A stretch of DNA of 61,177 bases from a virus (taxonomy: Duplodnaviria; Caudoviricetes), in the IMG/VR virus record IMGVR_UViG_3300025009_000108, positions 1 through 61,177 of that record. One strand, given 5' to 3'. The translations under genes and the position numbers were made by a program. Of this stretch, positions 7,907 to 55,911 are shown one piece after another. Positions within the stretch are counted from its first letter, which is position 1. Each line of letters begins with the position of its first letter. Below the pieces are notes generated by a model. That model did no database searches. It had not been told where the DNA came from and saw nothing but the letters and a program-made list of their open reading frames with translations.

Positions 7907-8128
7907 TCAATCCTCCACAAGTCTATGATTCCTGCGAATCTGCCTTTTGCAAGCCCCTATGAGTTTGTCGTACAGCTCGATCCTGATTGAAGCCGTTCCA
8001 AGCTCATAAGTAGCGATTGATGCCCCTGGGATGCCGGTCTTTTTCGCAAGTTCCCTTTGCGTCAGGCCGGCAGCCTTGCGCATCTCCCTTAGACGTTTTG
8101 AATATTTGGTTGGTTTTTTTGTTCTCAT
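7907..8128 (-). CDS. XRE/Cro-like HTH transcriptional regulator
   Basis: LREMRKAAGLTQRELAKKTGI...IATYELG. Confidence 0.9.
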   Translation of the reverse strand: MRTKKPTKYSKRLREMRKAAGLTQRELAKKTGIPGASIATYELGTASIRIELYDKLIGACKRQIRRNHRLVED

Positions 8129-8256
8129 GGTTTCCTTTTACGATAATGGAAATCTTGTGTCAACCAAAAAATATTACGAAACATGAAAAGTTTTGCTTGA
8201 CAGGCAAAAAACGGCTTGATAGATTGCGACCATCAAACTGAAAAACTTTAAGGAGG
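8129..8256. promoter_or_regulatory. Divergent early promoter region
   Basis: + strand TTGACA(8197)-17-TAGATT; - strand TTGACA(8163)-17-TAAAAG. Confidence 0.7.
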
Positions 8257-8263
8257 GAAACCA

Positions 8264-8500
8264 ATGCGAAAAGTTATTATCGAAAAAGAAAATGAACAAA
8301 CAGTTTTGCTAGAAAGTATTACCCCAGCGAAGCCCATTTTTGCTGTGCGCAACGGCGGAATTGTTGGTATGATAATTTGCGAAGAGAGGGGATATATTCT
8401 CAGATACCCAACCGGGATTGGCGCCAATGGGCACCATCCGAGCATTCTCAAATGTGTTGAGTCTGTTGGAAAGCTCGGATTTAGTTTTGTGACAGAATAG
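8264..8500 (+). CDS. Hypothetical protein
   Basis: AAGGAGG RBS; first gene of the rightward operon. Confidence 0.75.
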   Translation: MRKVIIEKENEQTVLLESITPAKPIFAVRNGGIVGMIICEERGYILRYPTGIGANGHHPSILKCVESVGKLGFSFVTE

Positions 8501-8503
8501 TCC

Positions 8504-8704
8504 TTGTGGCGGCGGTGCAACGGAAATGCGCCAGCGGGTGACGACTTACCGCAACCAATCTTTGAGTCGTGTGGGCCACGAGAACCAACCTTCGCCCTTT
8601 AATTCGTGTAAGTTGCGCGCGTTCCTGTGGAGTCTGCGGACGTTGAAACAGGTAGCCACTAAACAACTTACAAACCGTTCCGGCGAGAACCTGGCCCGCC
8701 ACAA
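8504..8704 (+). ncRNA. Putative tRNA-like structured ncRNA, copy A
   Basis: 9-bp closing stem TTGTGGCGG/CCGCCACAA; T-arm-like CCGG-CGAGAAC-CTGG; internal 8-9 bp stems. Confidence 0.6.
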
Positions 8705-8901
8705 ACAAATACAGAACGCTTTTGGCATTAAATTGGCCTCTATCGCGTGGACTCTGGTAGCCGGATAGCCTGACTCCGGCAAAACCCAACGGCTGGCGGT
8801 GAGCCAATATATCCGGTGGTCTAACAAAAGAAAGAGCAAGCGACTTCTCATATGCGTTACGGAGTGCCGGCGCAGAAGTAACAGTTGAACAGGAGTAAGC
8901 C

Positions 8902-9552
8902 ATGCAAGAAAGGCCCATATTGTTCAGTTCTGAAATGGTCCGCGCTATTTTGGACGGGCGAAAAACGCAAACTCGCAGGATAGTTAAGCCACAACCAACC
9001 GAGCATCACCAATTCAAAAGTGTTATGTATGGGCATGAAAAGTTGGGGGGAAAATTCTCCGAAAGTGTGTTCCCAAAATGTTTTGTAAAACTTGTTGAGT
9101 GCCCATACGGAGTCCCGGGAGACCGGCTCTATGTTAAAGAGGCTTGGCAGACGGGAGAAAAGCTTGATGATATGAACGCTACCGAAATGGAGTCAGCGGC
9201 CCAAGAAGCAGGATACGAAAACGGGCCGTATGGCCCATTGTGGTATCCTGCCGATGGATCATATCGTCAATGGGGAGAACGCGACGCAATTGATTTCGGC
9301 AATCCCGGCCGCAAACGCTCATCAAGATTCATGCCCAAATGGGCAAGCCGGATAACGCTTGAGATAACGGAAGTTCGAGTTGAGCGGTTACAGGAAATCG
9401 GCCAAGGGTCGGCATGCGCCGAAGGATGCCCGACGCTAAATGAGCCGATAGAGTGGTTCAGCGTTCTTTGGGATTCAATAAACGGAAATATATACCCATG
9501 GGATAGCAATTGCTGGGTTTGGGTAATCTCATTCAAAAGGATAAAGCCATGA
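8902..9552 (+). CDS. ASCH/PUA-like phage protein
   Basis: ERPILFSSEMVRAILDGRKTQTRR...CPYG..GDRLYVKE...FMPKWASRITLEI...WVWVISF. Confidence 0.8.
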   Translation: MQERPILFSSEMVRAILDGRKTQTRRIVKPQPTEHHQFKSVMYGHEKLGGKFSESVFPKCFVKLVECPYGVPGDRLYVKEAWQTGEKLDDMNATEMESAAQEAGYENGPYGPLWYPADGSYRQWGERDAIDFGNPGRKRSSRFMPKWASRITLEITEVRVERLQEIGQGSACAEGCPTLNEPIEWFSVLWDSINGNIYPWDSNCWVWVISFKRIKP

Positions 9553-9767
9553 ACGCCTACGAAGAATTGAAAGAATCCATCTCAAAAATAGAGGGCCTTT
9601 CAGTATCGGCCAGGGAGCTGACCTACTCGGTGATAGCCAACGCCGAACTTGACGAAGGCCACCTGGGGATTGACGCGCACGCAAAGCTGCAAACTGTCCG
9701 TAACCTAATGACCACGGCTAAGGAGTGCGCCGTATCGGCTATCGATATTTTAACTGAAGACGAATAG
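9549..9767 (+). CDS. Hypothetical protein
   Basis: ATGA-coupled to the previous gene. Confidence 0.65.
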   Translation: MNAYEELKESISKIEGLSVSARELTYSVIANAELDEGHLGIDAHAKLQTVRNLMTTAKECAVSAIDILTEDE

Positions 9768-9780
9768 GGGGAGAATTAAA

Positions 9781-10539
9781 ATGGAAGAATCAAAGCAGTG
9801 CGATGTTGTCAAGTCTGTGCCCATGTCACTTGTGGGCAAGTCTCCGGCCGCCATCGCCATGGATGCCATGGAGCGCGGATATGGGAAAGAGGCACTTGAA
9901 GTACTTGAACGGATGCTTGAACTCCAGATCAGGTATGACGCTGTAGAGGCTAAAAAAGCCTATGTGGCGGCCATGTCGGCGTTCAAGGCAGACCCCCCAG
10001 AGATCATCAAGGACAAATCCGTTGGCTATGAAGCGAAGGGATCTAAGGTCGGCTACATGCATGCCAGCCTTTCAAACGTTACCGACAAAATCAACAAGGC
10101 CCTAAGCAAGAACGGATTATCAGTTGCGTGGACCACCGCACAAACCGACAAGGGAGTATGTGTTACATGCACCATAACTCACATCATGGGGCATTCCGAA
10201 AGCACATCGCTGACTGCTGGACCGGATACGACCGGGAGCAAGAACTCTATTCAGGCAATAGGAAGCACCATTAGTTACCTTGAACGCTATACGGTGTTGG
10301 CCCTTACCGGGCTTGCCACGCGCGATATGGACAACGACGGAGCTGATGAAAAAGAAACCATTTCAACCGACCAGTCCACAGAGATAAACGACCTGATAAA
10401 CTCAATCTATGGTGCAAATGCCACCAAAGGCCTTGCATGGCTCAAGACGGCGTTCAAGGTAAACGCTGTAGAAGATCTGCAAGCTTCTAAATACAACGAT
10501 GTTATAACGGCCCTAAACAGTGCAAGGGGGAAAAAATGA
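9781..10539 (+). CDS. erf: ERF-family single-strand annealing protein
   Basis: QAIGSTISYLERYTVLALTGLAT.D.DNDG. Confidence 0.9.
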   Translation: MEESKQCDVVKSVPMSLVGKSPAAIAMDAMERGYGKEALEVLERMLELQIRYDAVEAKKAYVAAMSAFKADPPEIIKDKSVGYEAKGSKVGYMHASLSNVTDKINKALSKNGLSVAWTTAQTDKGVCVTCTITHIMGHSESTSLTAGPDTTGSKNSIQAIGSTISYLERYTVLALTGLATRDMDNDGADEKETISTDQSTEINDLINSIYGANATKGLAWLKTAFKVNAVEDLQASKYNDVITALNSARGKK

Positions 10540-11147
10540 TTGAGATATTTGATTCGTTCGAACAACGATCAGATGAATGGTTCGAAAAATGCCTTGGCTC
10601 AATAGGTGGTTCGAGCATCAGCAAGGTTGCAGCCAAGGGAGAGGGAAAGCAGCGCAAACAGTTGCTTTATGATATGGTTGGGGAGATCATATCCGGAAAG
10701 AAAAAAGAATCGTACACCAACCAATATATGCAGCTTGGCACTGAAAACGAGTCTGAGGCGCGAGACTATTACTCGTTGATAACCGGAAACGAAGTGCGCC
10801 AGGTTGCCTTGATTAAGGACTACCCACATAAGCATGTATCTCCTGACGGGCTTATCGGCGATGACGGAATGCTTGAAATCAAGAACGTGATACCATCTGT
10901 GTTTGTTGAGTACAAGATTACGGGCGCCATACCAACCGCCTATCGCAGACAAATGCAATGGGGCCTTTCTCGTTCTGGAAGAACATGGTGCGACTATTCT
11001 GTATATTGCCGCGACTTTGTTGGCAAGTGCGATCCGATATCAATCGTTCGCGTTGAGCGTGATGATAAGGAGATACGAGAACTTGAATTGGAGGCAGGTT
11101 ATTTTATCGAGGAAATGCTCTCACTCGTAAACAGGATAAGGGGGTAA
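10536..11147 (+). CDS. YqaJ/lambda-exonuclease-family protein
   Basis: EQRSDEWF, SPDGL, LEIK, QMQW. Confidence 0.92.
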   Translation: MIEIFDSFEQRSDEWFEKCLGSIGGSSISKVAAKGEGKQRKQLLYDMVGEIISGKKKESYTNQYMQLGTENESEARDYYSLITGNEVRQVALIKDYPHKHVSPDGLIGDDGMLEIKNVIPSVFVEYKITGAIPTAYRRQMQWGLSRSGRTWCDYSVYCRDFVGKCDPISIVRVERDDKEIRELELEAGYFIEEMLSLVNRIRG

Positions 11148-11148
11148 C

Positions 11149-11319
11149 ATGACAACAGCAAGGCAAGACCAAGACTTTGTCGGGCAGTTGATACCAAGCG
11201 ATCTTCTTGAGCAGTCCATTCAATGGATTCAAGACAACATGGAAATTGAAGACGTTTTCACATGGAAACAAATAGAATACTGGCTATCACAAAACGGTTA
11301 TCATCAGCATGAGGAGTAA
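11149..11319 (+). CDS. Hypothetical protein (56 aa, below the ORF track cut-off)
   Basis: MTTARQDQDF...; fills the gap exactly between neighbours. Confidence 0.65.
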   Translation: MTTARQDQDFVGQLIPSDLLEQSIQWIQDNMEIEDVFTWKQIEYWLSQNGYHQHEE

Positions 11320-11320
11320 C

Positions 11321-11593
11321 ATGAAACCAAAAACGAATTGGAACGGACTAACCGAAGAGTCTAAGGAGACTTTCTTCACTTTCTTTATGTGGTGCGAGTT
11401 TGGGCGTACTTCAGACGGTGGCAGACCCAAGACGTATTTAGAATGCCCTAACGGCACAATATGTAATTTTAGTTTATGTCACGTCCTATTCCCGTCAAAA
11501 ATGTCTTACTTATGTCCATGCCAAACTTACGGCAAGGATGCTTTTACAGCACTAAAGCAATGCCTAATCAAAAACGGATGGATTGAGGAATAA
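11321..11593 (+). CDS. Cys-rich hypothetical protein
   Basis: GAGGAG RBS. Confidence 0.65.
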   Translation: MKPKTNWNGLTEESKETFFTFFMWCEFGRTSDGGRPKTYLECPNGTICNFSLCHVLFPSKMSYLCPCQTYGKDAFTALKQCLIKNGWIEE

Positions 11594-12016
11594 ATGATCG
11601 AAGCCACCCTATACCGCAAACGAGATGTGTTCATCCCCATGACAGAGGACGACAGGCAGCTATGCCATGACATAGAAGAAGGCGTCCCGTTGCGCGGCAA
11701 GTTCACAAGGAAGAAGGTTGACCAAAGGACTGTAGATCAAAACAAAAAAATGTGGGCCATGCTATCAGATATTGCAAAACAAGTGAATTGGTACGGGAAT
11801 TACTTGACCAAAGAAGACTGGAAAGATATACTTTCGGCATCCCTCAAGAAACAAAAAGCGGTCCCAGGCATCAACGGAGGGTTTGTTGTACTTGGCGCCA
11901 GAACTTCTAAAATGTCCATAAAAGAAATGATTGATATGATAGAATTGATGTATGTGTTTGGGGTTGAACATAATATTGTTTGGACAAAAAAGAAATCTAT
12001 GGAGGATTACGAATGA
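11594..12016 (+). CDS. ninB: NinB-family recombination protein
   Basis: RTVDQNKKMWAMLSDIAKQV.W...EDWKD...VPGINGGFVVLG.RTSKM. Confidence 0.9.
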   Translation: MIEATLYRKRDVFIPMTEDDRQLCHDIEEGVPLRGKFTRKKVDQRTVDQNKKMWAMLSDIAKQVNWYGNYLTKEDWKDILSASLKKQKAVPGINGGFVVLGARTSKMSIKEMIDMIELMYVFGVEHNIVWTKKKSMEDYE

Positions 12017-12330
12017 AAAAGACAATCACCCTACTTATCACCATCGCACTTTTCACCGCCTGCACAACATTGCAGGCCCAGGAACCGCAACCGGCAAAGG
12101 CAACAGAGCAGGCGCCCTCACCTGACAAGATCCAGGCCCGCCTAAAGGTGCTCGAACCTATGGCCAAGGAAGCCTTGGAGGCAGTCAAGAAAACGCCGCA
12201 ATGGGCCGCATACGAAGTCCAGCGCAAAGAAGCGGACGATGCCGGGAAGGTTGTCGAGACAACGCCTGAATGGAAGAAATTCCGGGCCGTACAGGTGGAG
12301 CAAGAGTATCTTTTGAAACTCAGCAAATGA
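12013..12330 (+). CDS. Exported protein or lipoprotein, hypothetical
   Basis: MKKTITLLITIALFTAC signal/lipobox; GGAGG RBS. Confidence 0.7.
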   Translation: MKKTITLLITIALFTACTTLQAQEPQPAKATEQAPSPDKIQARLKVLEPMAKEALEAVKKTPQWAAYEVQRKEADDAGKVVETTPEWKKFRAVQVEQEYLLKLSK

Positions 12331-12341
12331 GGAGGCCGGTA

Positions 12342-12551
12342 ATGATTTGCGCAAAATGTGGCGAAGAAAAAGACCTCTGTCAATCTGTAAGAATAGACAA
12401 TATACAGCAACCAAGAATTTGTAAAGAGTGCTTAATGAAAACCCTGGATGGGGATAAAACAATAAGCGACTTGTTTTGGTTAATCCAACTTGGTCAAGCT
12501 GGTGATAGCGAAAGCATAGAAAATTTGAAAAGAATTTCTAACCCATCTTGA
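12342..12551 (+). CDS. Zn-finger hypothetical protein
   Basis: MICAKC...ICKEC; GGAGG RBS. Confidence 0.65.
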   Translation: MICAKCGEEKDLCQSVRIDNIQQPRICKECLMKTLDGDKTISDLFWLIQLGQAGDSESIENLKRISNPS

Positions 12552-12604
12552 AACTAAGCAAATAGAGCTACCGGCAAGGCAGGGGTAGCCATGGAGGAAA
12601 GCAG

Positions 12605-12817
12605 ATGACAACAATAGCTGATTTAGTCTTAGACAACGGAGAGTTGGTTAGACTGGAATGCAAGGATTCGGACCAAGACGAATTTTACGAGTCGATAGGA
12701 GACTGTCTGAAGCGCCGTGATTGGTGGAGTCCGGAGCGTTTTGTTGGATGCAAGGCCACATACCTAGGGCATTATCTGGATCGCGTAAACATGGCCCGCG
12801 TAATAGGCATGATGTAG
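12605..12817 (+). CDS. Hypothetical protein
   Basis: GGAGG RBS. Confidence 0.7.
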   Translation: MTTIADLVLDNGELVRLECKDSDQDEFYESIGDCLKRRDWWSPERFVGCKATYLGHYLDRVNMARVIGMM

Positions 12818-12844
12818 TGGCCATCGATCTTCCACAAAAACATA

Positions 12845-12879
12845 TTGACAAAGGTAAACTTACAAGGTAATATCGAGTC
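12845..12879 (+). promoter_or_regulatory. Sigma70 promoter with internal AAGGTAA direct repeats
   Basis: TTGACA-17-TAATAT, then ATG after 6 nt. Confidence 0.7.
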
Positions 12880-13029
12880 ATGAAAATAAAACTCAAAACA
12901 CAATTGAAATGCAGGCGCTGCGGTCACAAATGGAACCCTCGCAAGACAGAAGTGCGAATTTGCCCTCGATGTAAATCGGCTTGGTGGGATACAGCTAAAA
13001 CAGGTAGTAATACAAAGGCCGTGCAATGA
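12880..13029 (+). CDS. 49-aa Zn-finger protein (CRRCGHKW...CPRCKSAWWD)
   Basis: Translated by hand; ATGA-coupled to the next gene. Confidence 0.75.
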   Translation: MKIKLKTQLKCRRCGHKWNPRKTEVRICPRCKSAWWDTAKTGSNTKAVQ

Positions 13030-13325
13030 CCCCACGCCCAAAACAAAAAGTTACCCGTCTTCACGGCAAGGCCGAACGCGAACTTCGTCGCCAAGTCTAC
13101 GAACGCGCAATGGGCATATGCCAAGAGTGCGGAATATTCGCACCTCTTTATGACCAAGACGGTAACTTCAATTTATGGACCTGCGGACACCGTGCCCACA
13201 TCAAGAGCAAGGGTTCTGGAGGAGAAGACAGTCTGCAAAATTCTCGCTGGCTTTGTTATGGATGTCATATCAACAAAGAGCATGGCCCGAAGTGGTCAAA
13301 TAGCCCAACCAAGCGCGAAACCTAA
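13026..13325 (+). CDS. HNH endonuclease-family protein
   Basis: CQECG...HRAHIKSKGSGGED...N..WLCYGCH. Confidence 0.85.
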   Translation: MTPRPKQKVTRLHGKAERELRRQVYERAMGICQECGIFAPLYDQDGNFNLWTCGHRAHIKSKGSGGEDSLQNSRWLCYGCHINKEHGPKWSNSPTKRET

Positions 13326-13389
13326 CGCGCCCAACACGGGCCGTAATTGAGATGAACGCATGGCCCATGGAAACTTTAAAGGAGGAAGT

Positions 13390-13635
13390 ATGAAAGAGAT
13401 CAACAAATTAACACAGGTGCAGATGAAATTATTTATATGCACGGCATTAGACACACAAGGAAAGAGAATTCCACACACCGTCATAGTAAAAACTACTGGC
13501 CTTGGTTACGTTGAGGCGATGTTGGAACAAGAATTACTTAATTTAGATAATTATAAAATTGAGGAAATGCAGGATGAACGCGGTATTATGATTTTATTGT
13601 ATGAATCTGAGCCGTTTGTAGAATTAATATCTTAG
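13390..13635 (+). CDS. Hypothetical protein
   Basis: AAGGAGG RBS. Confidence 0.65.
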   Translation: MKEINKLTQVQMKLFICTALDTQGKRIPHTVIVKTTGLGYVEAMLEQELLNLDNYKIEEMQDERGIMILLYESEPFVELIS

Positions 13636-13652
13636 TGGAAAATAACCTTTTA

Positions 13653-13782
13653 GATGGCGGCACGGCGGAAATGCGCCTGCGATATGTAGGAATCGCACAA
13701 CACCGTACTACGATGCCGGGCCTGCGGGCGGGTAAGGAATTATAACCAGGCCAAGACCGTGGCGTTGAGAACACGCACCATC
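13653..13782 (+). ncRNA. Putative tRNA-like structured ncRNA, copy B
   Basis: GATGG/CCATC closing stem; CGGAAATGCGCC shared with copy A; GCGT-TGAGAAC-ACGC arm. Confidence 0.55.
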
Positions 13783-13801
13783 GAAACTTTAAAGGAGAGA
13801 T

Positions 13802-13999
13802 ATGCATACGCAGCCCATTCCAGAAAGCGAAGGAACTTTTCAGGAGCCAAAAACAATTACCGCCTACTGCCGAAAGTGCAAGAAACAACAACCAATCACT
13901 TTCGCGGTGTGGGAATCAAGTTGCGGCGGTTACGAGGATAACAAATTTACCTGTAGCGTTTGTGGCCATAGTTGGTGGGTGGACGGACCAGATTCTTAA
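13802..13999 (+). CDS. Zn-ribbon protein
   Basis: CRKC...CSVCGHSW; AAGGAG RBS. Confidence 0.75.
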   Translation: MHTQPIPESEGTFQEPKTITAYCRKCKKQQPITFAVWESSCGGYEDNKFTCSVCGHSWWVDGPDS

Positions 14000-14254
14000 T
14001 CAACCAAAATCCAGGCCTGCGAAGCGAGAAGCTATGAAGCAGAGGCGAAAGCCATCCTAGTGGCGGATAAGCCTGAATGCGCAAAGAAAGGTTGGTAATT
14101 ATGAATCTTTACTTGGAGGGGGTGGGTATGGAAGACTGGAATAACAGTAGTGAAGATATTGTATTATACTGTTTTTTCGTGTCAACCATACTTAACACTA
14201 GATCGCAATTTAATAATATTATTATTTATATGTTTACTTAAATAGGCTAATACT

Positions 14255-14446
14255 ATGCTATGCTGTGGCTGTAATAAGTTAATAAGCTCACATGAAACAT
14301 TTTTAGTTCTTAAAATACCCACGATAGCTAATGATGGTGTTAAAAACATTTTAAGATTTGTTTGCCACGATAGCTCTTTTTGTGAGGAAACTATAAGAAA
14401 TGAGGTCTCAAAGTTTGAGACTCCAAACGATACATCAACGCATTAA
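14255..14446 (+). CDS. Hypothetical protein in an AT-rich patch
   Basis: ORF only, no clear RBS. Confidence 0.4.
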   Translation: MLCCGCNKLISSHETFLVLKIPTIANDGVKNILRFVCHDSSFCEETIRNEVSKFETPNDTSTH

Positions 14447-14636
14447 GGTTTAGGAGGCAGCATGCCAGAGGAATTAATCCTGATAACAGAATTGGTATGC
14501 GGGCAAATAGCATTCCCGTACTCCAACGGATTAACCATCTACAAGTCTACTGAAACCGAGTATAAAGTATTTGTTTCAAACGGATGGTTTGAATACCTAC
14601 CGGAAACCTTGGGATGTTTTGATAGGAGGTAAAGCC

Positions 14637-14765
14637 ATGACCCAAGAAGACATTCTTGAAATTCTCTGGAACTCACTCCCAGAGTGGAGGAAGGAACAGC
14701 TCCGGCGACAAGACGATTACGAAGTCGTAAACGGTGAGATTGTGGAAAAGGAGGTAAATCCATGA
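14637..14765 (+). CDS. Small hypothetical protein (MTQEDILE...)
   Basis: AGGAGG RBS; part of a chain of coupled small ORFs from 14462 to 14881. Confidence 0.6.
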   Translation: MTQEDILEILWNSLPEWRKEQLRRQDDYEVVNGEIVEKEVNP

Positions 14766-14877
14766 CAGAATTCAAGCCAAAGCAAGACCAGCGTGTGATT
14801 TTGGGGGATTCGTTGGAGAATATGCAGCCGTATAGTTGCGATAAATACGGATACACAAGCGATTGGGAGGAAAGGAC

Positions 14878-15414
14878 ATGACCTTCAACCCATCAAGAGT
14901 ATCAGACATGCCAACAATAGACCTCGCAGACATGCCACTTTCTATATCAAGCCCATGCGATTACGGAATAATAAAAAGCCCATGCATGTGCCGGCCAGAT
15001 ACAGGCGTTCCATGCGGGCTACTACCAAAAGATAAGAACCAACCATTTTGTGCCGGATGCAAGTTCACTGGTAACGGGCGCATGGTTTATACCGGATCTG
15101 GCCACGACAACGAAATTATTCACGAATATTACATACGCCGCCAAAACCAGGCGAAACGCTACGGCCGCAGAGAGATTAAAGAGAGAAGGGTATGTATGTG
15201 GCCCGGATGTTCCCATATGATGCACCAGAGATGCAAACCTACAGATCGGTACTGCAAGGAGCACGGAGATAGGTACAGGCATCGGATAAGGCAGTGGGGA
15301 AGGCAGTTCCCTGGCCGGCCAGTTGATATGGATTGGGTATATCGTGACATAAAAGATTATGGTATTATGAAGAAAAAACTACAAAAAAGCTTTTCACCCG
15401 CAAATAAACCATAG
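14878..15414 (+). CDS. Cys-rich hypothetical protein
   Basis: ATGA coupling; CMWPGC...YCKEH. Confidence 0.65.
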   Translation: MTFNPSRVSDMPTIDLADMPLSISSPCDYGIIKSPCMCRPDTGVPCGLLPKDKNQPFCAGCKFTGNGRMVYTGSGHDNEIIHEYYIRRQNQAKRYGRREIKERRVCMWPGCSHMMHQRCKPTDRYCKEHGDRYRHRIRQWGRQFPGRPVDMDWVYRDIKDYGIMKKKLQKSFSPANKP

Positions 15415-32810: not shown

Positions 32811-35800
32811 TTAGTTCACTGTCTTATCGTACATTGAGTTGAATGTTTTGTATTGTTCGTCAATGATCTTTTCTATGTTTTTAACTTGTTCCTTATTCCC
32901 AGATGCTTCAAGGGCTTTCTTAACTCTTCTCAACCTGCGAAGATTTTTCTCTGTCTGAACAGCTGCACCAAACATGGCTTGCTGCGGCTTGGTCTGTGAG
33001 CTCAAATTTCTAAAATAATCAGACCCGGCATAGGCTTCAAGCTGCTCTTTGACAGTCAATATTTCTTGAATGTTTTCAAAATATGTTCTTGAATCAGACC
33101 ACTCTGCCTTTTCCCCAAAAACTCTTCGCACAAAAGGAATTTTAGATATTTGGACCTCTTCCCCCCTTAACTTTTTAAGTGGTACGGCACCCATATCTGC
33201 AAAAAACCTAGCCATGGAACCGCCCACCGTGTCCAAGATAAGATCAAGAGTAGCCGGGGAAACATCGATAGCACCCTTTTTTATATTGTCGCCCCCCGTC
33301 AGAGTGTTTAGTTGCGAGGCTACCCACACAGACGGCTTCCTGGATGACTTCCAATACCTTTGCGAATCTGGATCTGGAACCTTATCGAAAGGATTATCAC
33401 CAGGCATCAACGGGCCACCGAACCAATTCTTGTTTTCTGCTACTTGAGCGAATGGATCGGCAATAGTTGGAGCCAATGTTTGAAGGAGAGTCCCGGATTG
33501 AATTGGATTAAATGCGTTTGCAAAATTTACGGCAAGCCTGGCAGCGCCATCGATAGGTTTATAATTTTTTCTAGTGAACGCAAGCGCCGCTTCGGTTCCA
33601 ATATTCCAAAACAGGTTATATCCCCATGGAAGAGGGATTTTTAAGTATTTTCCTTTCGACCCGGGTATCATGAATATGGCATTCCGTTCTCTTACATAAT
33701 CCTCTATTTTGCTGTAATAGTCTTCATTGTCATCGTCATCTCCTCCCACCATGGCATTTAGTATGCCGAACGTGAAACCAGTCCCTACGATGCCGGCGAG
33801 CGTTTTCCTAACTCCTGAGCTTCTGCGTGCTGCCCTGATTATTCTATAAGAACCCTGTATCCCTGCATTGGCAAAAAGATACAGAGAATTTATTACAGGC
33901 CCAGCAGCTCCCTTTTTTGTGAAATCTACCGTTATGTCTGAAGCTATTTTAGCTGCCTTAATATCGGTCATCCCTTTTCCGGCGGCCAATTTGAAAACAT
34001 GCAATCTTATCCCGTTCTCAATCGCTGTGTTTGCCGCGCCAACTGTTTCGGCAAACTTTCTTGCTGTAGCCAAAATGGGTCTTTTACCTTGTAAAACCTC
34101 AACATCTTTTGATATAGATTTTTCAAGATTTGCAACACTCCCATGAATGTCGGACCAGCCTATTTTCCCACCTGCTTTTTTAAATCTATCGTATAACTTT
34201 TCGAGTTCATCGCCTTTTTGTTTTCCTTTTTCAACTCTCCATATAGCATTTACTGCTTTCCCGGCGCCAGAAAGCATGTTTTTGCCCTTAACTCCGGTAT
34301 CCTGGATATTTATATTGGCTGTCTGAAAGTCTCTTGCAAAGTTTGAAATGATAAATTCAGGGCTCCAGGTTGTATTTATTTTTGCAAGCCATTGATTAAC
34401 TTTTGCCAGGCTATTCATTATAGGCCCATAGGAAGTATCCGCAGCTTTCAATGTCCTTAACATCAACATCAAATCTCTGTTGTCGCGGTTAACTTCAAGG
34501 ATATATTGCTTACCATCCGACATGAACCTAAACTCATTATCAGAAACGTTGAAAATGTCCGGGTACATTCTAACGTTTCCGTATTGGTCTAACCTCGGTG
34601 CCTTTTTCTCTGTCTTCAATGTCCATAGCGTCGGATCTGGGTTATTCTTTACTAGGTCCCTCAACACCCTGGTTGAAGCAGCTTTTTCGGCAAGATTAAT
34701 AGCCTTTTCGTAGGATGCAACCGAATTCCCAATGATGTTGACTACGTTTCTTTTTGACCCACCGCGTACCTTGATTGGCTTTCCGGTAGGATTAAGCCCC
34801 CTTGATGCTCCGAACACAGAATCATCAAAACCTTCTCTTTGAAGAGGGACATAATACTCAAACTTTGATTTTATGGCATCATATTCCTCTTGTGGTATTA
34901 AGCCTGCGTCCATAAGCAACTCAAGGCGATTATTGTTTATGGATGCGAGATTTTTCCTAAGCCTCTCCATAACGGTGTCGCTATGGTATTTGTCAAGAAT
35001 ATCTTTAGCTTCGGCATTTGACATTCCTGATAGCTTACCGACACTATCCTGAGTTTCGTCTATACCGGTGAAAGATTCCCAATTTTTCTTTATTTGCTTT
35101 GTGGCATTTTCATCGGCAAACTGCTCAAATGATTTTTCTAGATATTTATAATTATCTTCTCCAGTTAACCCGACGCCTTCAAAAACACCTTTTGTTTTAG
35201 CAGATTTACGCTTATTTTCTGTTGCTACAGCCATTTCATCACGCAATGGTTTTGTGATTTTTGCCGGCAACGCTTCAATTAAAGCGTCAAGAAATCTCTT
35301 TGCATTTTTATCCCTTGCGTCAATATTGGCTTCTTGAGCATGTTTTGCGTGAGCATATTCCTCAAGATAGGAAACGTTCTTACCAGACTTAGCGATAGCT
35401 TCAATCAATGGCTTAACTTCATTCGCCCATAGCTCCTTTACCCTATTTGCGGTAACTTTCGGGCGTTGCGTTTCTTTTAGGAATACGTCTATGCTTTCAG
35501 TAACTTTTGATAGTTTTGCCTGAACCTCTTGAATCGGATGGTTTTTATCTACAATCCAATACATGAAATCATTGAGAGGCCGGTTTATCGCTGATCTAAT
35601 TTCTTCAAACCTACCATTTAACCGTTTTGATTCAGTTCGCTCTTTTTTATCTAAACCGAACTCCTTATCTGCCTTCTCCTTCCCAAAATACTTAACCGCG
35701 AAGTCGTAGGCTTCTTGGTCGAACTCCGTATTATCGCTGTCTTCCTTTCTTCTGCTGAAGGATGGTTCAGTTCCAGCCTTACCAGGTTGGCTTGTGTGTG

Positions 35801-38800
35801 TAGGGATTGGATCGTCGTTTTGATCGACATTCCAGTATTTTACCTCAAAATTCCCGACATAAGTTTCTTCTGGGTCTCCAAGCAATTTTGTTAATTTTGA
35901 TGGCAATATCTTGTCGTAAAGATTGGATAGGTTTCCTGTTTCCCACCCCATACTTACCTGTAAAGCATCGGCATCGGGCAACATGATAGAGTTGATTTCA
36001 TTTTTGGCGGCGTAGGACACAAGATGCCTGATGGCTATATCATACATCCTGTTCCTGACTTTCGCAGGCATTTTAGCTTGCTCTTGTTTAGAAGGCGGCT
36101 GTATCTCCTCAACAAGTAAGTCGCTTCCGTCTTCTCGCCTGTGGGTCAATCTTATTCTGGCAACTGGATTTTTTATGTGTGCGTATTCTTTGTGTCCGTC
36201 AACCCAGGATGATCCTTCGGTACCATCGTAGGCGATATGAAGCTCTTTGTATGAGTTAATATCGCCCCAATCATCGCCGAACACGCTATCGCCATGTTCT
36301 GATGTACCGTCATCAATGAGGATGGTGTCTTTGTACCGTTGCCCGCCTTCTGGCTTCTCGGGTTGATTCTCCCTCCTCGAAAACTGCGCCCCCTCTCTCA
36401 TGGCGTCCAGCTTTTCACCGTTGCGCTCAAGGAGGGCTATGCGGTCGAGAACTTTTTGATCCCATATTACAAAGTTCGAAGTTCTTGATGCCGCTTTTTC
36501 AGCTTCCGCTTTCGTTACGAACTCGGCAAGCAAATTGCCTTTTCCGTCAACAACGTCCCATGTGTTCGATTCTTTGGAAAACTCTACCTTGTTGTTGCCC
36601 TTATCGCGGCTCATCTGGTCGAGGTACTTATTTCCGGGGATGCCTATTGAGGCGAGGTATTCGGAGGCGGCTTTCTGGTTTGCTACTCTGTCATTGAGCG
36701 TCTGCCTAAACCCCGTCCAACCATTGCCGGCCGGTTCGTCTTTTTCAGACAAAAATTCAGACAGGTCTGCATACAAGGCTTCGCCGCTGTCGGCGCTATC
36801 CCACGAATGGTTCAAAACCTTTTTAAGATCGCCCGATGAACTATCGTAAGCCCTGCGCAAAGCCTTCTTCACATACTCGCTCTGCTCCGACAACGGCTTA
36901 TCCCAATCCAAGAGCTTCGGGATTACGTCGTCGGGGATATCAAGTGTGTATAGCTGAGACTCACCCTTATTAAATTTAACGCTATTGTCACCTTCATTCA
37001 GTTTTTTAAGGATGGCCTTTAGGTGCGGAACGGCCTTCGGGTTGTCGTCGTTGGCCATTTCTATTCTGTCGTTTATGACTTCTCGCGCCATATCGACAAC
37101 GCCGATGACTCCTTTTTTATCAAAAGCCTCTCTTAACTTCCATTCGTTTATCAATAAATCTTCTTGTATCTGAGCCCTGACGTAATCGCGCTCAGTGGGG
37201 TTTTTGGTGAACTGGTAAGGAGAGTAATCTACCGGGTCGCCATTGTGGTATAGTGGAACTCCACCAACTGTTAGACTCCTAACTTCCGTCAGTGGCCTAA
37301 GAACTTCGGCGTATCTTCCTGCTACCGTTTTTTCCTCAGCGGAATACCACCCCCACCCATACGAAGCCGCCCCTTCCCCCGTCCCGATCTTATCCAACCG
37401 TGGCCGACCATGAGGAAAGCCTTTCTCTGGCGGCCAGATGTGCGGGGTGCCGTGATAAGCTTTGGCAAATGCCGGGGCACTCTCATCAACCAAAGATTTA
37501 GCACCGCCCTCAACCACACTCGCCCGCGCAGCATCAAGAAGGCTACGAATCTCTGCATCGGAAAACTTCAGACTGGGAGCAACCCTTCGCACAAATGAAC
37601 GGATTGCAGCAACAACCTTGTCTATCCATGTCGATTGCTCATTCTCCGAAACGTGCCTTGCAAGCCACTCATCAGCGGCTTGAATGCGCCCGTTTTGGTT
37701 GGACATATCGAAACCGTACTCTTTGCCTATTGCATCGGCTTCAGCCTTCTTGGCCGCATATACCTGCCTTAAAACCATCTTGAACTGAGGCCCCAATAGT
37801 TCCCTAAGCCCGTAATGACCGAAGGATTCGTGGAGCATGGTATTGACTGCGGACTTTTCCGAAGCAAGGTTGTCAGCTACGAGATAAACTGTTCCGTGGT
37901 AGAAGGTGCCGTCAACGATGTCATTTTCAGCGCCAATGGATTTAAGATGGTCGAGTATGTCTCCGGGCAGTTCGGATTGGGATTGAACCACTTCAACGGC
38001 CGGTGAATTTGCCCATGCTGATGTTATGCGGACTATTTTTATGGACAGGTCTTTGGCTTTTTGAGTGCCATGTTCTTGTGGATTTCGCCTGGAAAAAATA
38101 GGCTTATCAGAACTGCTCTTCAGAGACTTAGCGTCAACCACAATCCGCTTTCCACCAGGAAGCGTCACGCGGATCATGCCCTTCTTCTTGCCGCGCTTTA
38201 TCTCCTGGGTTTCAACGTATGGGCGCCATTGGTTACCGGTCCATACGCGGCCAAGTGCTTTGGGCTTTTGGGGGGCCTCTTCTGGGTTCTGTTTGACAGT
38301 GCGACCCACAGCCCTTCTCTCTCCAATATCACGCCGTTCAGGAGTTCCCCTATCCTGTGACCGCCTCTCAACCATACCGACTTCACCTGGGGCCGCTGCT
38401 TGCTCTCTTCGGCCTGATTTTTGGACGCCGTTTATTGGCTTTCTGGATTGTTCAACTTCGGGGAGTGTTCGCTTTTCCTGAACGGATGCCGGTTGCTGAA
38501 CGGGGCTTTCCCATTTGATGCCGCGTTTTTCTAATACCCTGCGGGCGGACATGGTCGCTTCATTGTCTTCGTGGCCTTGAGCGGTTCTGATAAGCTGCTC
38601 AGTTCTGGTGGGCGCTCTTAGTTCGCCAGATGCTATCTTGTCGGCGTAGTCCTTTCGGGCCGCATCTCGTTTTGTAATAAGTTCACGGTCTTTAGCAGCT
38701 TGTGCGTCTACGGTTTTAGCCCATTGCTTATCTGACTTGCCGCCTCTGTTTTTGTGTAGGGCAGATTCACCGATGTCTTGCCGCGAAAGCCCGACGCTGG

Positions 38801-41183
38801 AAAGGTATTCTTCCTCTGTCATGGCTTGCGGGGCTTCCTGCCTTTCCTTACCGCTCGGATCGGTTAAGGTTGGGGGCGTTGCCTTAACTTGGAGGTCTGG
38901 ATATGCCGATAGCACCGAAGCGGGAACGGGCTTTCCATCAGACACCGCTGTCTTCACGGCCTCTCGGTGAGATTGCCTTAAATACCCGTCTAGGGTATCA
39001 TCACTTCTTGCTGCCATCTGCTCGGCTGAAATTGCCCATACAGGAACAGCATTAGGGGCAACCTGCCTGCCTTCAATAAAGGCTTTTTCTGTAACGTCGT
39101 ACCACTCGTCTTCGAGCCTTTTCCGCACCGAGTCCCTGTGTTTTCTGACGTACTCTCGGGGGGCTTGCCTTCCTATCCCTTTCTCCGCTTCTGTTTCAAA
39201 CCTGCTTTCGACGTATTCCTGTTGGCTTTGTTCCCACGGTTCTTTAGTGGCTGGAGCCGCCATCTCTGACGGCTCCATTGCTGTAACTTTCCTTCCTACC
39301 TTAGCACCATATTCTGTCATCTGTTCGGGAGTACGCTTATCCCTAACCAATGGATGCGTTCCAGCCGCAGCCTCCAAGGCCTCACGGTAAAGCTGCCCAC
39401 GATAGGCGTTCTGTGTCCGTTCGTCGCTGAAGTCTTTGGCGGCTTTCAATTCTGCTTCGCGGGCCTGAGTTTCTGATCTAAGCCGTTCAATCTCCTTAAT
39501 CTGTTCATGTGTCGCGTTCTTTCCGAAATCAACGGCTTCGTTGGTGTTTTTAAAGTCCGGGATTCTTTCCGTTACTGTTTCTGCGGGTGGCAGATTAAAT
39601 TTTTGGATGCCTTCCCCAGCGGCAACCAAGGGGGAGTCAAGTTGCGCCGGGGAAGGTTGCTGCGCTTCCTGTGGGGAGGAGGGCACAGGGGCGGCAGCAA
39701 TATTTTTACCCCGGCCAGCGCCAGACGGTTTCTCGGCTTCTGGGCGCGGGGTCTCTTGGGCACGTTTCTTGATTTCGTTGGCTATGGCTTGCCTGGCCGA
39801 TGGATCTTCTGAACTCGCCAGAACATCAACTAAAATAGAAACCTCTTGAGCCCTTGCTTTTCGTTGAGCGGCCTCATCAGCCAACTGCTTGCGGGCCATC
39901 TCATTACGTGAAATCTCGTTTTCAGCATCGATGTTTGTGCGGTCAATGGCTTGCTGGTTCTGTTTCTGACGTTGAACAATAGGCTCTTCGGTCAATCCCT
40001 CTCTCTCAAAAACTTCATACGATTGCTCGGCAGGTGCCATTGGCGCTTGGCTTAATATATCGGCAGATTCTTTGGCTGTTGAAGGCCGCCCGGTTTTTCC
40101 AAAGCTTCCTTGCTGATACTCTTCTTCAATCTCGTCAAAAACTGTCTTTGGTTGATACTGCGCTATCGCCTCGTCAATTCCTGATCGCATAGCGGGAGGA
40201 ACACGATCCCGCATGGCCTTTAGCTGGTCTGCGGTTACGGCTCCGGATTGGAGATCGGCAATGAATGGATTTGGTTGGGCGTCTTGCTTTTCGTCTTGAA
40301 CAACCTCCCCACGCCCTGAAATGGCACCGGCTGCACCAGGGATTAACGCCATGGGAGCGGCTATAGACGCTTCGTACAATCCTTCCTTGGCGGTTTGCGG
40401 AAGCTGCTTTATGTACTGTGCGCTTTTTTCGAGGAGGGTCTTATCAGGGTTCGGCGCAAAGATGTTTACAAATTCATCGGGAAACTTCTGAAAAAATTCT
40501 GTAAACGCTTCTGCACCTGCCGCCTTTAATGCCGTAAATATGGGCTTGCCAAACGACGATAGCGCCTTGCTTATACCAATTTGTTCAAGCGGTGCTTGCA
40601 TTGAAGCGTTGGCAAGACCCCATATAGCAGCTTCTTTTTCAGGAACGCCCTTTTCGATTAGATCGTTATACGTTCCGCCTGCAATCTGTAACCCCATTCC
40701 GGTAACACCGGCCACAGGCGATGCCATAGAGGTAACGATTTGACCGCCGAACTGAGGTACGGCGCGAGCAAAAGATTCGCCCCAATTCTTGGGCTGCATG
40801 GATTTATCGGGAGCTATAGACGGACTCTTGGCTACCGTCGAGGCGGCTTGCGCCATCTGATCGTTATATTCTGGACCGAACGTATCGATGCCTGGTTGAA
40901 TTTGAGGCTTTAGAAAACCTGATTTGTAACCAGCCGCAATGCCGCCCATAGTGCTTCTGGCAACGTCTTTTGCACCTTCAATAAACTGTTTAGGTCTGAT
41001 GATAGGTTCGCCGGATGGCTCAAACGGTTCTCCGCCGTGCATGTCGCCCGGTGTTAAATAGTCCATTTTTGGTTGTTTCAACTGTGCCTGAAATTCAGAC
41101 TCAAGGTCATCTAAAACAGAAACTCCCCTGCGAGGATTCAACGATTGCTGAAATTCATTTTCAAGATCTTCAATAACACCCAT
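32811..41183 (-). CDS. Large polyvalent internal virion/ejection protein (LPD38 C-terminus, zincin-like and ART-like domains)
   Basis: HESFGHYGL; AYHGTPH...IGTGEGAASYGWGWY; YVRERNAIF...KIPLPWGY. Confidence 0.85.
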   Translation of the reverse strand: MGVIEDLENEFQQSLNPRRGVSVLDDLESEFQAQLKQPKMDYLTPGDMHGGEPFEPSGEPIIRPKQFIEGAKDVARSTMGGIAAGYKSGFLKPQIQPGIDTFGPEYNDQMAQAASTVAKSPSIAPDKSMQPKNWGESFARAVPQFGGQIVTSMASPVAGVTGMGLQIAGGTYNDLIEKGVPEKEAAIWGLANASMQAPLEQIGISKALSSFGKPIFTALKAAGAEAFTEFFQKFPDEFVNIFAPNPDKTLLEKSAQYIKQLPQTAKEGLYEASIAAPMALIPGAAGAISGRGEVVQDEKQDAQPNPFIADLQSGAVTADQLKAMRDRVPPAMRSGIDEAIAQYQPKTVFDEIEEEYQQGSFGKTGRPSTAKESADILSQAPMAPAEQSYEVFEREGLTEEPIVQRQKQNQQAIDRTNIDAENEISRNEMARKQLADEAAQRKARAQEVSILVDVLASSEDPSARQAIANEIKKRAQETPRPEAEKPSGAGRGKNIAAAPVPSSPQEAQQPSPAQLDSPLVAAGEGIQKFNLPPAETVTERIPDFKNTNEAVDFGKNATHEQIKEIERLRSETQAREAELKAAKDFSDERTQNAYRGQLYREALEAAAGTHPLVRDKRTPEQMTEYGAKVGRKVTAMEPSEMAAPATKEPWEQSQQEYVESRFETEAEKGIGRQAPREYVRKHRDSVRKRLEDEWYDVTEKAFIEGRQVAPNAVPVWAISAEQMAARSDDTLDGYLRQSHREAVKTAVSDGKPVPASVLSAYPDLQVKATPPTLTDPSGKERQEAPQAMTEEEYLSSVGLSRQDIGESALHKNRGGKSDKQWAKTVDAQAAKDRELITKRDAARKDYADKIASGELRAPTRTEQLIRTAQGHEDNEATMSARRVLEKRGIKWESPVQQPASVQEKRTLPEVEQSRKPINGVQKSGRREQAAAPGEVGMVERRSQDRGTPERRDIGERRAVGRTVKQNPEEAPQKPKALGRVWTGNQWRPYVETQEIKRGKKKGMIRVTLPGGKRIVVDAKSLKSSSDKPIFSRRNPQEHGTQKAKDLSIKIVRITSAWANSPAVEVVQSQSELPGDILDHLKSIGAENDIVDGTFYHGTVYLVADNLASEKSAVNTMLHESFGHYGLRELLGPQFKMVLRQVYAAKKAEADAIGKEYGFDMSNQNGRIQAADEWLARHVSENEQSTWIDKVVAAIRSFVRRVAPSLKFSDAEIRSLLDAARASVVEGGAKSLVDESAPAFAKAYHGTPHIWPPEKGFPHGRPRLDKIGTGEGAASYGWGWYSAEEKTVAGRYAEVLRPLTEVRSLTVGGVPLYHNGDPVDYSPYQFTKNPTERDYVRAQIQEDLLINEWKLREAFDKKGVIGVVDMAREVINDRIEMANDDNPKAVPHLKAILKKLNEGDNSVKFNKGESQLYTLDIPDDVIPKLLDWDKPLSEQSEYVKKALRRAYDSSSGDLKKVLNHSWDSADSGEALYADLSEFLSEKDEPAGNGWTGFRQTLNDRVANQKAASEYLASIGIPGNKYLDQMSRDKGNNKVEFSKESNTWDVVDGKGNLLAEFVTKAEAEKAASRTSNFVIWDQKVLDRIALLERNGEKLDAMREGAQFSRRENQPEKPEGGQRYKDTILIDDGTSEHGDSVFGDDWGDINSYKELHIAYDGTEGSSWVDGHKEYAHIKNPVARIRLTHRREDGSDLLVEEIQPPSKQEQAKMPAKVRNRMYDIAIRHLVSYAAKNEINSIMLPDADALQVSMGWETGNLSNLYDKILPSKLTKLLGDPEETYVGNFEVKYWNVDQNDDPIPTHTSQPGKAGTEPSFSRRKEDSDNTEFDQEAYDFAVKYFGKEKADKEFGLDKKERTESKRLNGRFEEIRSAINRPLNDFMYWIVDKNHPIQEVQAKLSKVTESIDVFLKETQRPKVTANRVKELWANEVKPLIEAIAKSGKNVSYLEEYAHAKHAQEANIDARDKNAKRFLDALIEALPAKITKPLRDEMAVATENKRKSAKTKGVFEGVGLTGEDNYKYLEKSFEQFADENATKQIKKNWESFTGIDETQDSVGKLSGMSNAEAKDILDKYHSDTVMERLRKNLASINNNRLELLMDAGLIPQEEYDAIKSKFEYYVPLQREGFDDSVFGASRGLNPTGKPIKVRGGSKRNVVNIIGNSVASYEKAINLAEKAASTRVLRDLVKNNPDPTLWTLKTEKKAPRLDQYGNVRMYPDIFNVSDNEFRFMSDGKQYILEVNRDNRDLMLMLRTLKAADTSYGPIMNSLAKVNQWLAKINTTWSPEFIISNFARDFQTANINIQDTGVKGKNMLSGAGKAVNAIWRVEKGKQKGDELEKLYDRFKKAGGKIGWSDIHGSVANLEKSISKDVEVLQGKRPILATARKFAETVGAANTAIENGIRLHVFKLAAGKGMTDIKAAKIASDITVDFTKKGAAGPVINSLYLFANAGIQGSYRIIRAARRSSGVRKTLAGIVGTGFTFGILNAMVGGDDDDNEDYYSKIEDYVRERNAIFMIPGSKGKYLKIPLPWGYNLFWNIGTEAALAFTRKNYKPIDGAARLAVNFANAFNPIQSGTLLQTLAPTIADPFAQVAENKNWFGGPLMPGDNPFDKVPDPDSQRYWKSSRKPSVWVASQLNTLTGGDNIKKGAIDVSPATLDLILDTVGGSMARFFADMGAVPLKKLRGEEVQISKIPFVRRVFGEKAEWSDSRTYFENIQEILTVKEQLEAYAGSDYFRNLSSQTKPQQAMFGAAVQTEKNLRRLRRVKKALEASGNKEQVKNIEKIIDEQYKTFNSMYDKTVN

Positions 41184-55228: not shown

Positions 55229-55488
55229 AGGGCCTCTACATTTGAAGTCATTCGATCAACTTCAATCATTTCGATGATCGTAAATGGAACGAAAACGTGC
55301 TCTATGCCCTCTTTTACTATTTTTGCTGAATAAAAACTAAGCAGCGGCCTAAGTAAATATTCTATATACTCAAAAAACTCAACGCTTGCAGACTTTATTT
55401 TTTTGAACTCATTATCCCCAATAGGCCTAACATCACCACAGTAAAAAATAAACCATCGGCTTGGATTTATAGAAGCTTCAAACCCCAT
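55225..55488 (-). CDS. Hypothetical protein, paralog 1
   Basis: Aligns with 55589..55906 (SINP..WFIFYCGDVRP). Confidence 0.75.
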   Translation of the reverse strand: MGFEASINPSRWFIFYCGDVRPIGDNEFKKIKSASVEFFEYIEYLLRPLLSFYSAKIVKEGIEHVFVPFTIIEMIEVDRMTSNVEAL

Positions 55489-55588
55489 ATAGGTTACCCC
55501 TTTTTAGAGCAATTCCGAACATGCTTTTCGTACCACGGTGCTCCGGACTCGCTATGGTAGTCTCTATCATAGAGCCTCTACGATTCGT

Positions 55589-55906
55589 TTAATTGTTGTC
55601 ATATCTATCTTCATAGAGATCCTCGAATGAATTATCAATCTCCGTGTGCTCTCTGGATTCTCGATTTGAATTGGCCAGATCCGCATCAATCATGTCTACA
55701 ATCGTGAATGGAACAAAAACGTGATCTACCCCTTCTCTCAATATTTCTGCTGAATGAAATCTGAGCATTGGAGTAAGTAAGTATTGTATATAATCAAAAA
55801 ATTCATCACTTGCAGCCCTTATTTTTGAAAACTCATTATCCTCCACAGGCCTCACATCGCCACAATAAAAAATAAACCATGATTTTGGATTGATCGATTG
55901 TACCAT
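55589..55906 (-). CDS. Hypothetical protein, paralog 2
   Basis: See paralog 1. Confidence 0.75.
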   Translation of the reverse strand: MVQSINPKSWFIFYCGDVRPVEDNEFSKIRAASDEFFDYIQYLLTPMLRFHSAEILREGVDHVFVPFTIVDMIDADLANSNRESREHTEIDNSFEDLYEDRYDNN

Positions 55907-55911
55907 ATAGG

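Follow-up and report, generated by a model that had tools for sequence, protein, structure and literature searches.

A candidate structured RNA domain occurring twice in the early operon of an uncultured groundwater phage

We have analysed two stretches on the + strand of one phage genome, copy A (8504-8704) and copy B (13653-13782), and have found that the base pairs defined on copy B are all kept in copy A, several of them with changes on both sides. In our judgement, there is about an even chance that A and B are diverged versions of one maintained, functional RNA fold. Overall, they probably represent a phage-specific structured RNA motif, which belongs to no known family and has so far a single genome to its name. 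The comparison comprises only two sequences, both from this one genome, and we infer transcription, junction formation and all function from their letters.

Genomic setting and layout of the two copies

The window, i.e., the whole stretch of DNA that was analysed, is a complete virus record of 61177 bases with direct terminal repeats, coming from an uncultured phage. The sequencing runs holding this phage DNA are labelled as groundwater metagenome. The genes for terminase, portal and major head protein are on the - strand together with a 2790-aa ORF (32811-41183, -, among the structural genes), and the same strand carries a DnaB-like helicase, a replication initiator and a methyltransferase at the left end. 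The two ends of the record (47-122 and 61018-61125) are highly similar and internally repetitive, with scores of 88-95 over 100-nt windows, which fits the label "direct terminal repeats". Outside the termini, the strongest internal repeat is a direct repeat of ~150 nt with a spacing of ~420 nt (55406-55560 and 55830-55965, scoring up to 69 over 100-nt windows), found between the portal gene and the ORF that follows.

The early recombination operon is on the + strand and spans about 8264 to 15414. It encodes a 78-aa ORFan, a 216-aa protein (ORF 8902-9552, +; PHROG 874, with a weak ASCH match), Erf, a YqaJ-type exonuclease, NinB, an HNH nuclease and many small ORFs. A promoter-like site on the + strand at 8197-8225 (TTGACA, 17 nt, TAGATT, with TG), which comes from a consensus scan only and has 10 of 12 matches, faces away from a Cro/CI-type HTH gene on the opposite strand. 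Transcription of the + strand operon would begin from this site, ~270 nt upstream of copy A. Further inside the operon, the small ORFs 12880-13029 (49 aa) and 13802-13999 (65 aa) show zinc-ribbon-like CxxC...CxxC patterns, and another promoter-like site (12845-12873) precedes the former. The stretch 14100-14460 is AT-rich, and the best promoter-like site of the region is there on the - strand (14185-14158, 11/12 matches). A snoRNA-model match in the same stretch was taken as chance (E 0.017, 29 bits vs a gathering score of 43).

Copies A and B occupy the two largest untranslated gaps of the operon, of 401 nt and 166 nt, respectively. The remaining genes overlap or sit at most ~80 nt apart, except for short stretches with small ORFs. 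Both copies are on the same strand (+) of the same operon, the distance between the two gaps is ~5 kb, and the neighbouring genes are also on the + strand.

Copy A (8504-8704, +) begins 4 nt past the stop of ORF 8264-8500 (78 aa) and lies inside the 401-nt gap before the 216-aa ORF. Its closing helix P1 pairs the 5' strand TTGTGGCGG (8504-8512) with CCGCCACAA (8696-8704) at a probability of 0.44-1.0, and is present in the minimum free energy (MFE) fold. The core of this helix is GTGGCGG (8506-8512) with CCGCCAC (8696-8702), and it can be extended to nine pairs (8504-8512/8696-8704). The junction strand J1/2 (CGGTGCA) follows, and then come the 5' strand of P2 and a 12-mer shared with copy B, the three together making up 8513-8532 (+). 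P2 pairs ACGG (8520-8523) with CCGT (8675-8678), where the 12-mer is at 8521-8532 and the word ACCGT is at 8674-8678. The hairpin P3 (GCGG/CCGC, 8534-8552, +) has a pair probability of 0.13-0.20, and a rival hairpin of seven pairs (8541-8547/8564-8570) is seen in the MFE fold of A. A variable insert of 122 nt (8553-8674, +) separates P3 from the 3' end of the domain, where the hairpin P4 (8680-8694, +) pairs CCGG (8680-8683) with CTGG (8691-8694) around the loop CGAGAAC (8684-8690).

The insert of copy A holds a third CGAGAAC word (8579-8585), which is outside any P4-like hairpin. For this reason, we rejected the idea that copy A consists of two tandem units (8505-8597 and 8623-8704). Genome-wide, the word GAGAAC is found only 12 times on the + strand, and three of these are within copies A and B. 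In the same untranslated leader, 92 nt behind copy A, there is a near-copy of the P1 5' strand, TGGCGGTG (8794-8801); speculatively, TGGCGGTG could pair with the P1 3' strand of A as an alternative. No gene or terminator-like site is close behind copy A in the region examined.

Copy B, counted from the P1 5' strand to the P1 3' strand (13653-13782, +), sits in the 166-nt gap 13636-13801 between ORF 13360/13390-13635 and ORF 13802-13999. In its P1, GATGG (13653-13657, +) pairs with CCATC (13778-13782) at a probability of 0.98-1.0 in the predicted ensemble. The 7-nt J1/2 (CGGCACG, 13658-13664, +) can pair alternatively with 13672-13677, and this alternative helix is called Px. The P2 5' strand GCGG (13665-13668, +) pairs with CCGT (13757-13760), which is part of the word ACCGT at 13756-13760; the probability of P2 is ~0 in the predicted ensemble. 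The shared 12-mer CGGAAATGCGCC (13666-13677, +) is followed by N and GCG, and its last 9 nt form the unpaired strand from P2 to P3. The P3 hairpin TGCGAT/ATCGCA (13678-13683/13692-13697, +) has an 8-nt loop and a probability of 0.42-0.55. Then there are a variable insert of 59 nt (13698-13756, +), containing the hairpin GGCCTG (13719-13724)/CAGGCC (13747-13752), and the P4 hairpin (13762-13776, +), in which GCGT (13762-13765) and ACGC (13773-13776) close the 7-nt loop TGAGAAC (13766-13772) with a probability of no more than 0.07. All the strings and stems which a first-pass annotation of this DNA had listed for A and B were found in their places when the sequence was read.

For copy B, an outer helix is predicted in addition. 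In the MFE and centroid folds of 13630-13815, the P0 5' strand CCTTT (13646-13650, +), which starts 11 nt past the upstream stop codon (13633-13635), pairs with AAAGG (13791-13795). P0 is a helix of only five A/U-rich pairs. In both folds, it is predicted to mask AAAGG in the ribosome-binding site of the gene that follows, the 65-aa zinc-ribbon-like ORF, whose site AAAGGAG (13791-13797) and ATG (13802-13804) make up 13791-13804 (+). A 20-nt module, CCAT-N-GAAACTTTAAAGGAG, is present at 13365-13384 and 13778-13797 with 19/20 identical positions, each time just before an ATG (13390 and 13802, respectively). Since the module precedes the ATG at 13390, translation of the ORF listed as 13360-13635 probably begins there. 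The second occurrence includes the P1 3' strand of B and the ribosome-binding site behind it, so P1 of copy B may be partly a by-product of this module.

Shared pairs and the question of chance

To compare the copies, the register was taken from MAFFT alignments of the two ends separately, both of which are ungapped. Full-length MAFFT had misplaced the 3' end of B onto the inner CGAGAAC of A, and therefore the ends were aligned as separate blocks. In this register, all of the 13 pairs defined on B alone (five in P1, four in P2 and four in P4) also pair in A: four of them carry two-sided changes, two carry one-sided changes and seven are invariant, the last being uninformative on structure. Going from B to A, P1 keeps 5/5 pairs, two with two-sided changes (A-U to G-C and U-A to C-G). 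P2 keeps 4/4, with a G-U in B becoming A-U in A. P4 keeps 4/4, two with two-sided changes (G-C to C-G and U-A to G-C) and one with a one-sided change (G-C to G-U). When the 3' partner is slid by 1-4 columns, just 2-7 of the 13 pairs remain. At 20000 random places, the same geometry gives a mean of 4.9 pairs; a value of 11 or more was reached 17 times, and 13 was reached once. By a rough reckoning, in which 0.375 is allowed per two-sided change and one third per one-sided change, the chance that all six changed pairs would stay paired is ~0.002.

The geometry around these helices is shared as well. J1/2 (7 nt), J2/4 (1 nt), J4/1 (1 nt) and the P4 loop (7 nt) are of equal length in both copies, and the strand from P2 to P3 is 10 nt long in both with nine identical letters. 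The first three pairs of P3 are common to A and B, and the fourth is A-U in B and G-C in A, which is a further two-sided change. On the other hand, the variable inserts (59 nt in B and 122 nt in A) show no mutual similarity. Overall, the 13 of 13 pairs with their changes, the additional change in P3 and the insert of free length suggest a maintained RNA fold of the + strand.

The first-pass annotation had stated that the stems differ and still pair. Actually, this holds for P1, P2 and P4 in the objective register, but not for its example of CACGG/CCGTG in B as compensatory to AACGG/CCGTT in A, which is 3 nt out of register; in register, GCGG/CCGT with a G-U in B stands against ACGG/CCGT in A. 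From a conserved core with variable inserts, the annotation had argued for a selected RNA structure. The kept pairs and the insert lengths agree with that argument, although it extends over two sequences of one genome.

Each copy has one G-U pair that would mismatch on the - strand, where 12 of the 13 pairs are possible. This bears on a reading at the DNA level, according to which A and B are sites of a DNA-binding protein (e.g., an elongation-blocking repressor) or a recombination signal, and the stems are incidental. Such sites would go with the asymmetric 12-mer, which points the same way in both intergenic gaps of the operon, and with an operon encoding recombination proteins and an HNH nuclease. 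However, the G-U pairs speak for an RNA of the + strand, and neither compensating changes in three helices nor a free insert closed by P1 is expected from a DNA site. In addition, there are two copies only, which are neither palindromic nor iterated. We regard this reading as very unlikely.

The RNA fold would have a second form. In Px, J1/2 pairs with the conserved UGCGCC (6/6 pairs in A and 5/6 in B), and Px is part of the MFE fold of A. As the P2 5' strand lies in the loop of Px, P2 and Px are mutually exclusive.

We have also asked how far the similarity between A and B exceeds chance. Exact copies of the 12-mer are found at two places only in the window, namely 8521-8532 and 13666-13677, and the word ACCGT-N5-YGAGAAC likewise has exactly two occurrences. 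Scans with these two patterns thus give no third copy in the window. In the two-block test, only the two 35-nt ends of B were used, in order, 50-260 nt apart and on both strands. Copy A scores 25.5, while the best other place of the genome on either strand scores 21.5; the maxima in 40 dinucleotide-shuffled genomes range from 19.5 to 24.0, and none of the 40 reaches A. Within this score, the 5' block (16) has the top value of the genome, and the 3' block alone (9.5) is ordinary, as 105 windows match or beat it.

Single parts of the similarity are much less striking. The 12-mer alone is at chance level (blastn-short E 0.46-1.2), and equally good matches elsewhere exist for three other 12-mers of B. 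With lenient gapped local alignment, the score of the 5' block is 19.5, the 48th from the top among 2108 genome pairs sharing a 10-mer, and ~18 pairs per dinucleotide-shuffled genome reach this score; the 5' block alone is at chance level in such an alignment. With a free chain-of-words statistic, A ranks no higher than about 20th to 75th among 6062 windows.

The folding energies give no additional signal. The z-scores of the MFE are -1.1 for B, -0.4 for A and +0.1 for B with flanks, i.e., no better than shuffles. In the predicted ensemble, P1 is near 1 in both copies, P2 is ~0, P4 is at most 0.07, and P3 has a moderate probability in B and a low one in A. A fold forced to contain P1, P2 and P4 together is less stable than the MFE fold, by 8.6 kcal/mol in B and by 6.2 kcal/mol in A. 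A covariance model, R1, was built from B alone and is weak as a single-sequence model. In the window, it recovers A as two halves only, with 8.8 and 7.9 bits (E 1.4 and 2.4); the insert, which is 63 nt longer in A, weighs heavily against a single-sequence model. According to the first-pass annotation, a structural alignment of the two copies scoring no better than shuffled controls would refute the motif; here the outcome went against the motif, as this single-sequence model scores A no better than background. Another R1 match in the window (12868-12975) was dismissed, being inside the 49-aa zinc-ribbon ORF.

These results leave room for the explanation that there is no function at all, and that the few GC-rich words common to A and B are accidental or are left over from an old duplication, with stems of the kind that GGCG/CGCC-rich sequence gives. 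The E value of the 12-mer, the frequency of the 5' block score in shuffles, the 105 windows at or above the 3' block, the unremarkable folding energies and the lack of relatives in the collections searched all agree with this explanation. On the other hand, the combined two-block score is above every other place of the genome and above 40 of 40 shuffles, and the 13 kept pairs, six of them changed, compare with 2-7 in the slid controls. The equal junction and loop lengths and the position of both copies in the operon's only two long gaps, on the same strand, also speak against this explanation. Overall, we consider an absence of function somewhat unlikely.

Relatives, known families and coding potential

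We have compared the window with the 4227 models of Rfam 15, which include riboswitches, hammerhead, twister, pistol, hatchet, HDV-like, c4 and pRNA, and no match at gathering score was obtained in the whole window. With E up to 10, nothing was found on either element in 8000-14500, nor in 8495-8905. For 13636-13801 at the same threshold, the sole match covers an unstructured stretch of 17 nt in a fly lncRNA model (E 1.5).

A further reading is that of a ligand-binding riboswitch or a small self-cleaving ribozyme from an undescribed class. A closed junction, conserved junction strands, a peripheral insert of free length and the exclusive helices P2 and Px are typical for aptamers and small ribozymes. 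The closing helices of B are moreover predicted to reach the ribosome-binding site. However, the short stretches give no match to any riboswitch or ribozyme model of Rfam with a threshold as lenient as E 10, no expression platform was found for A, and the genes downstream, for an ASCH-like protein and small zinc-ribbon ORFs, do not point to a metabolite. Known classes are seen in many genomes, whereas the motif here was found in one. A new riboswitch or ribozyme is distinctly unlikely in our view.

ARAGORN predicts 0 tRNA or tmRNA genes in the window. This concerns a hint of the first-pass annotation that the element might be processed to a stable small RNA acting in trans, e.g., a tRNA-like substrate of RNase P. 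P4 is one nucleotide from the P1 3' strand, loosely like a T arm beside an acceptor stem, and P1 is very stable in the predicted ensemble. Against this are the ARAGORN result and the lack of an Rfam family; P4 has four pairs, J1/2 has 7 nt, and no terminator follows. The chance of such a processed RNA seems slim to us.

Relatives were then sought by words and by sequence. In IMG/VR, the 12-mer with NGCG is found in at least 118 stretches, with the 3' block in none of those examined among the matches listed; GGCGGY plus a gap plus the 12-mer gives 30 stretches, 0 of which have GAGAAC behind. In the JGI/ENA metagenomes, 15 stretches were found, 0 with the 3' block and all resembling GC-rich coding DNA. 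A scan with one genome per prokaryote species yields at least 120 stretches, and the composite is in none of the matches listed. Throughout these scans, the matches examined have the look of GC-rich coding DNA. A "distant" blastn search of both elements against phage records gives no match.

R1 has also been run on other genomes. There is no match in five genomes, nor in the whole HK022 record with E up to 10. In 151 genomes of one order, R1 has one match of 28.7 bits, which we read as false, as it relies on B-specific letters and not on the shared core; it lies antisense within a 304-aa ORF.

Neighbouring genes were used to reach related loci. The search with the 216-aa ORF gives one locus, and the nearest homologue is 61% identical. 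No locus is obtained with the 91-aa ORF, nor with the capsid in IMG/VR, and ORF 8264-8500 (78 aa) has no homologue except itself. By aligning 20 homologues of the 216-aa protein, we reached 80 loci. In searches with R1 and with words, the element is absent from 81 loci around 216-aa homologues. On such sequence comparisons, the phage has no close kin in the collections searched.

Among the sequencing runs listed as holding phage sequence, there is no RNA run. We have compared the contigs of four runs with 8200-14100: only pieces identical to the window are found over B, and over A there is none except the likely source. Elsewhere, groundwater-run contigs are only 80-90% alike to 9310-9786 and 12124-12317, and one of them is at ~7x the phage depth. 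This indicates that related phages or shared modules exist in those samples.

A coding reading of the shared block was rejected, because its + strand frames differ between A and B. Long - strand ORFs are present at 8481-8918 and 13586-13891, and neither has a Pfam or PHROG match.

Possible role and comparison with known systems

If the fold is maintained, we can suggest how it might work. Both copies would be transcribed within the + strand early operon, and each would form a three-way junction of the closing helix P1, the 7-nt J1/2, P2 and P4. P2 would enclose the conserved 9-nt strand, the P3 hairpin and an insert free in length and sequence, while P4, a 4-bp hairpin with a conserved 7-nt loop, would be placed one nucleotide from P2 and one from P1. 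In B, P1 together with P0 would bury the ribosome-binding site of the next gene. Since the 5' strand of the outermost helix lies 11 nt (B) or 4 nt (A) past the upstream stop, a terminating ribosome would open this helix, and the downstream expression would thus be coupled to upstream translation. The choice between P2 and Px would give the domain two states. In A, the domain may act on the 401-nt untranslated leader, that is, on transcript elongation or stability. A and B cannot work quite alike, as A has no nearby downstream gene. A cis-regulatory switch of this fold-or-unfold type, setting the expression downstream, is the reading we prefer, and we would place its probability a little under even.

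The position of copy A suggests one more possibility, namely an RNA which acts on the polymerase without a dedicated protein, in the manner of antitermination or anti-polarity by HK022 put; A would load near the promoter and B would reload for the distal genes. A is ~270 nt past the promoter-like site and just behind the first small ORF, and putR is at a similar distance from its promoter according to PMC9378689. The 401-nt untranslated leader stands before an operon of 6.5 kb, and the two copies have common unpaired strands, as this possibility would have it. However, put is described in PMC9378689 as an RNA of ~70 nt with two stem-loops and no closing helix, which differs from a closed junction of 130-201 nt, and R1 has no match in the HK022 record. 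Furthermore, no convincing + strand intrinsic terminators are predicted behind A or B, and both copies are in one operon, with none in the divergent early operon of the - strand. Antitermination of this kind is quite unlikely.

A wider claim would be that a closed junction with two states (P2 or Px), used twice in one early operon, represents a new class of phage regulatory RNA. One option is direct action on the elongating polymerase, which would add a third kind of RNA-only processive antitermination to put and EAR; the other is that it senses a ligand or a phage protein and so times the distal early genes. We hold this claim to be unlikely at present. For the control of phage early operons by RNA, there are very few models (nut and put), almost all of them from coliphages. 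If the element is real, an uncultured groundwater phage would use an unrelated fold for the control of its early operon, and a small two-state RNA would be at hand. For now, the value is limited by the single genome and by a function that is inferred.

If it works at all, the element would do so in the manner of the few RNA signals known from phage early operons. Among these systems, the lambda-type nut site has a boxA and a boxB hairpin with a five-letter GNRA-like loop on 5 pairs, and is bound by the arginine-rich N protein. Like nut, the domain combines a conserved single strand with a small hairpin behind it, whose loop is rich in purines, and recurs in early transcripts. Unlike nut, P4 in both copies is a 7-nt loop on 4 pairs. 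The first ORF (8264-8500) is not arginine-rich, and no N-like family was found in Pfam or PHROGs for 27 ORFs.

Long-range RNA helices are also known to couple the translation of neighbouring phage genes by masking a ribosome-binding site. Similarly, the sequence of B just past the upstream stop is predicted to cover the next ribosome-binding site. For such coupling one helix suffices, whereas here a conserved junction domain is inside, and A has no gene directly behind. As to a riboswitch-like platform, the occlusion of the ribosome-binding site is predicted for B and none is predicted for A.

The put RNA makes the RNA polymerase resistant to terminators through the zinc-binding domain of the beta' subunit. 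According to PMC9378689, putL and putR of the lambdoid phage HK022 are cis-acting antiterminators, one in each of the divergent operons, and their ~70 nt form two stem-loops in a V shape with no closing helix. The present element is similar in having two related copies in phage early transcripts, one of them a few hundred nucleotides behind the early promoter and after the first small gene, and in having no dedicated protein partner evident. It differs from put by the closed three-way junction of 130-201 nt and by the location of both copies in one operon. Judged by this architecture and by the HK022 record without an R1 match, the element is not a member of the put family.

It is in the location of copy B that the domain comes near to another RNA-only system. 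The EAR/epsC RNA of Bacillales is an intergenic RNA for processive antitermination in an exopolysaccharide operon, and its family is in Rfam. EAR has a different fold, its operon is bacterial, and the phage element has no Rfam match; like EAR, however, copy B would be a structured RNA placed not in the leader but between genes within a long operon.
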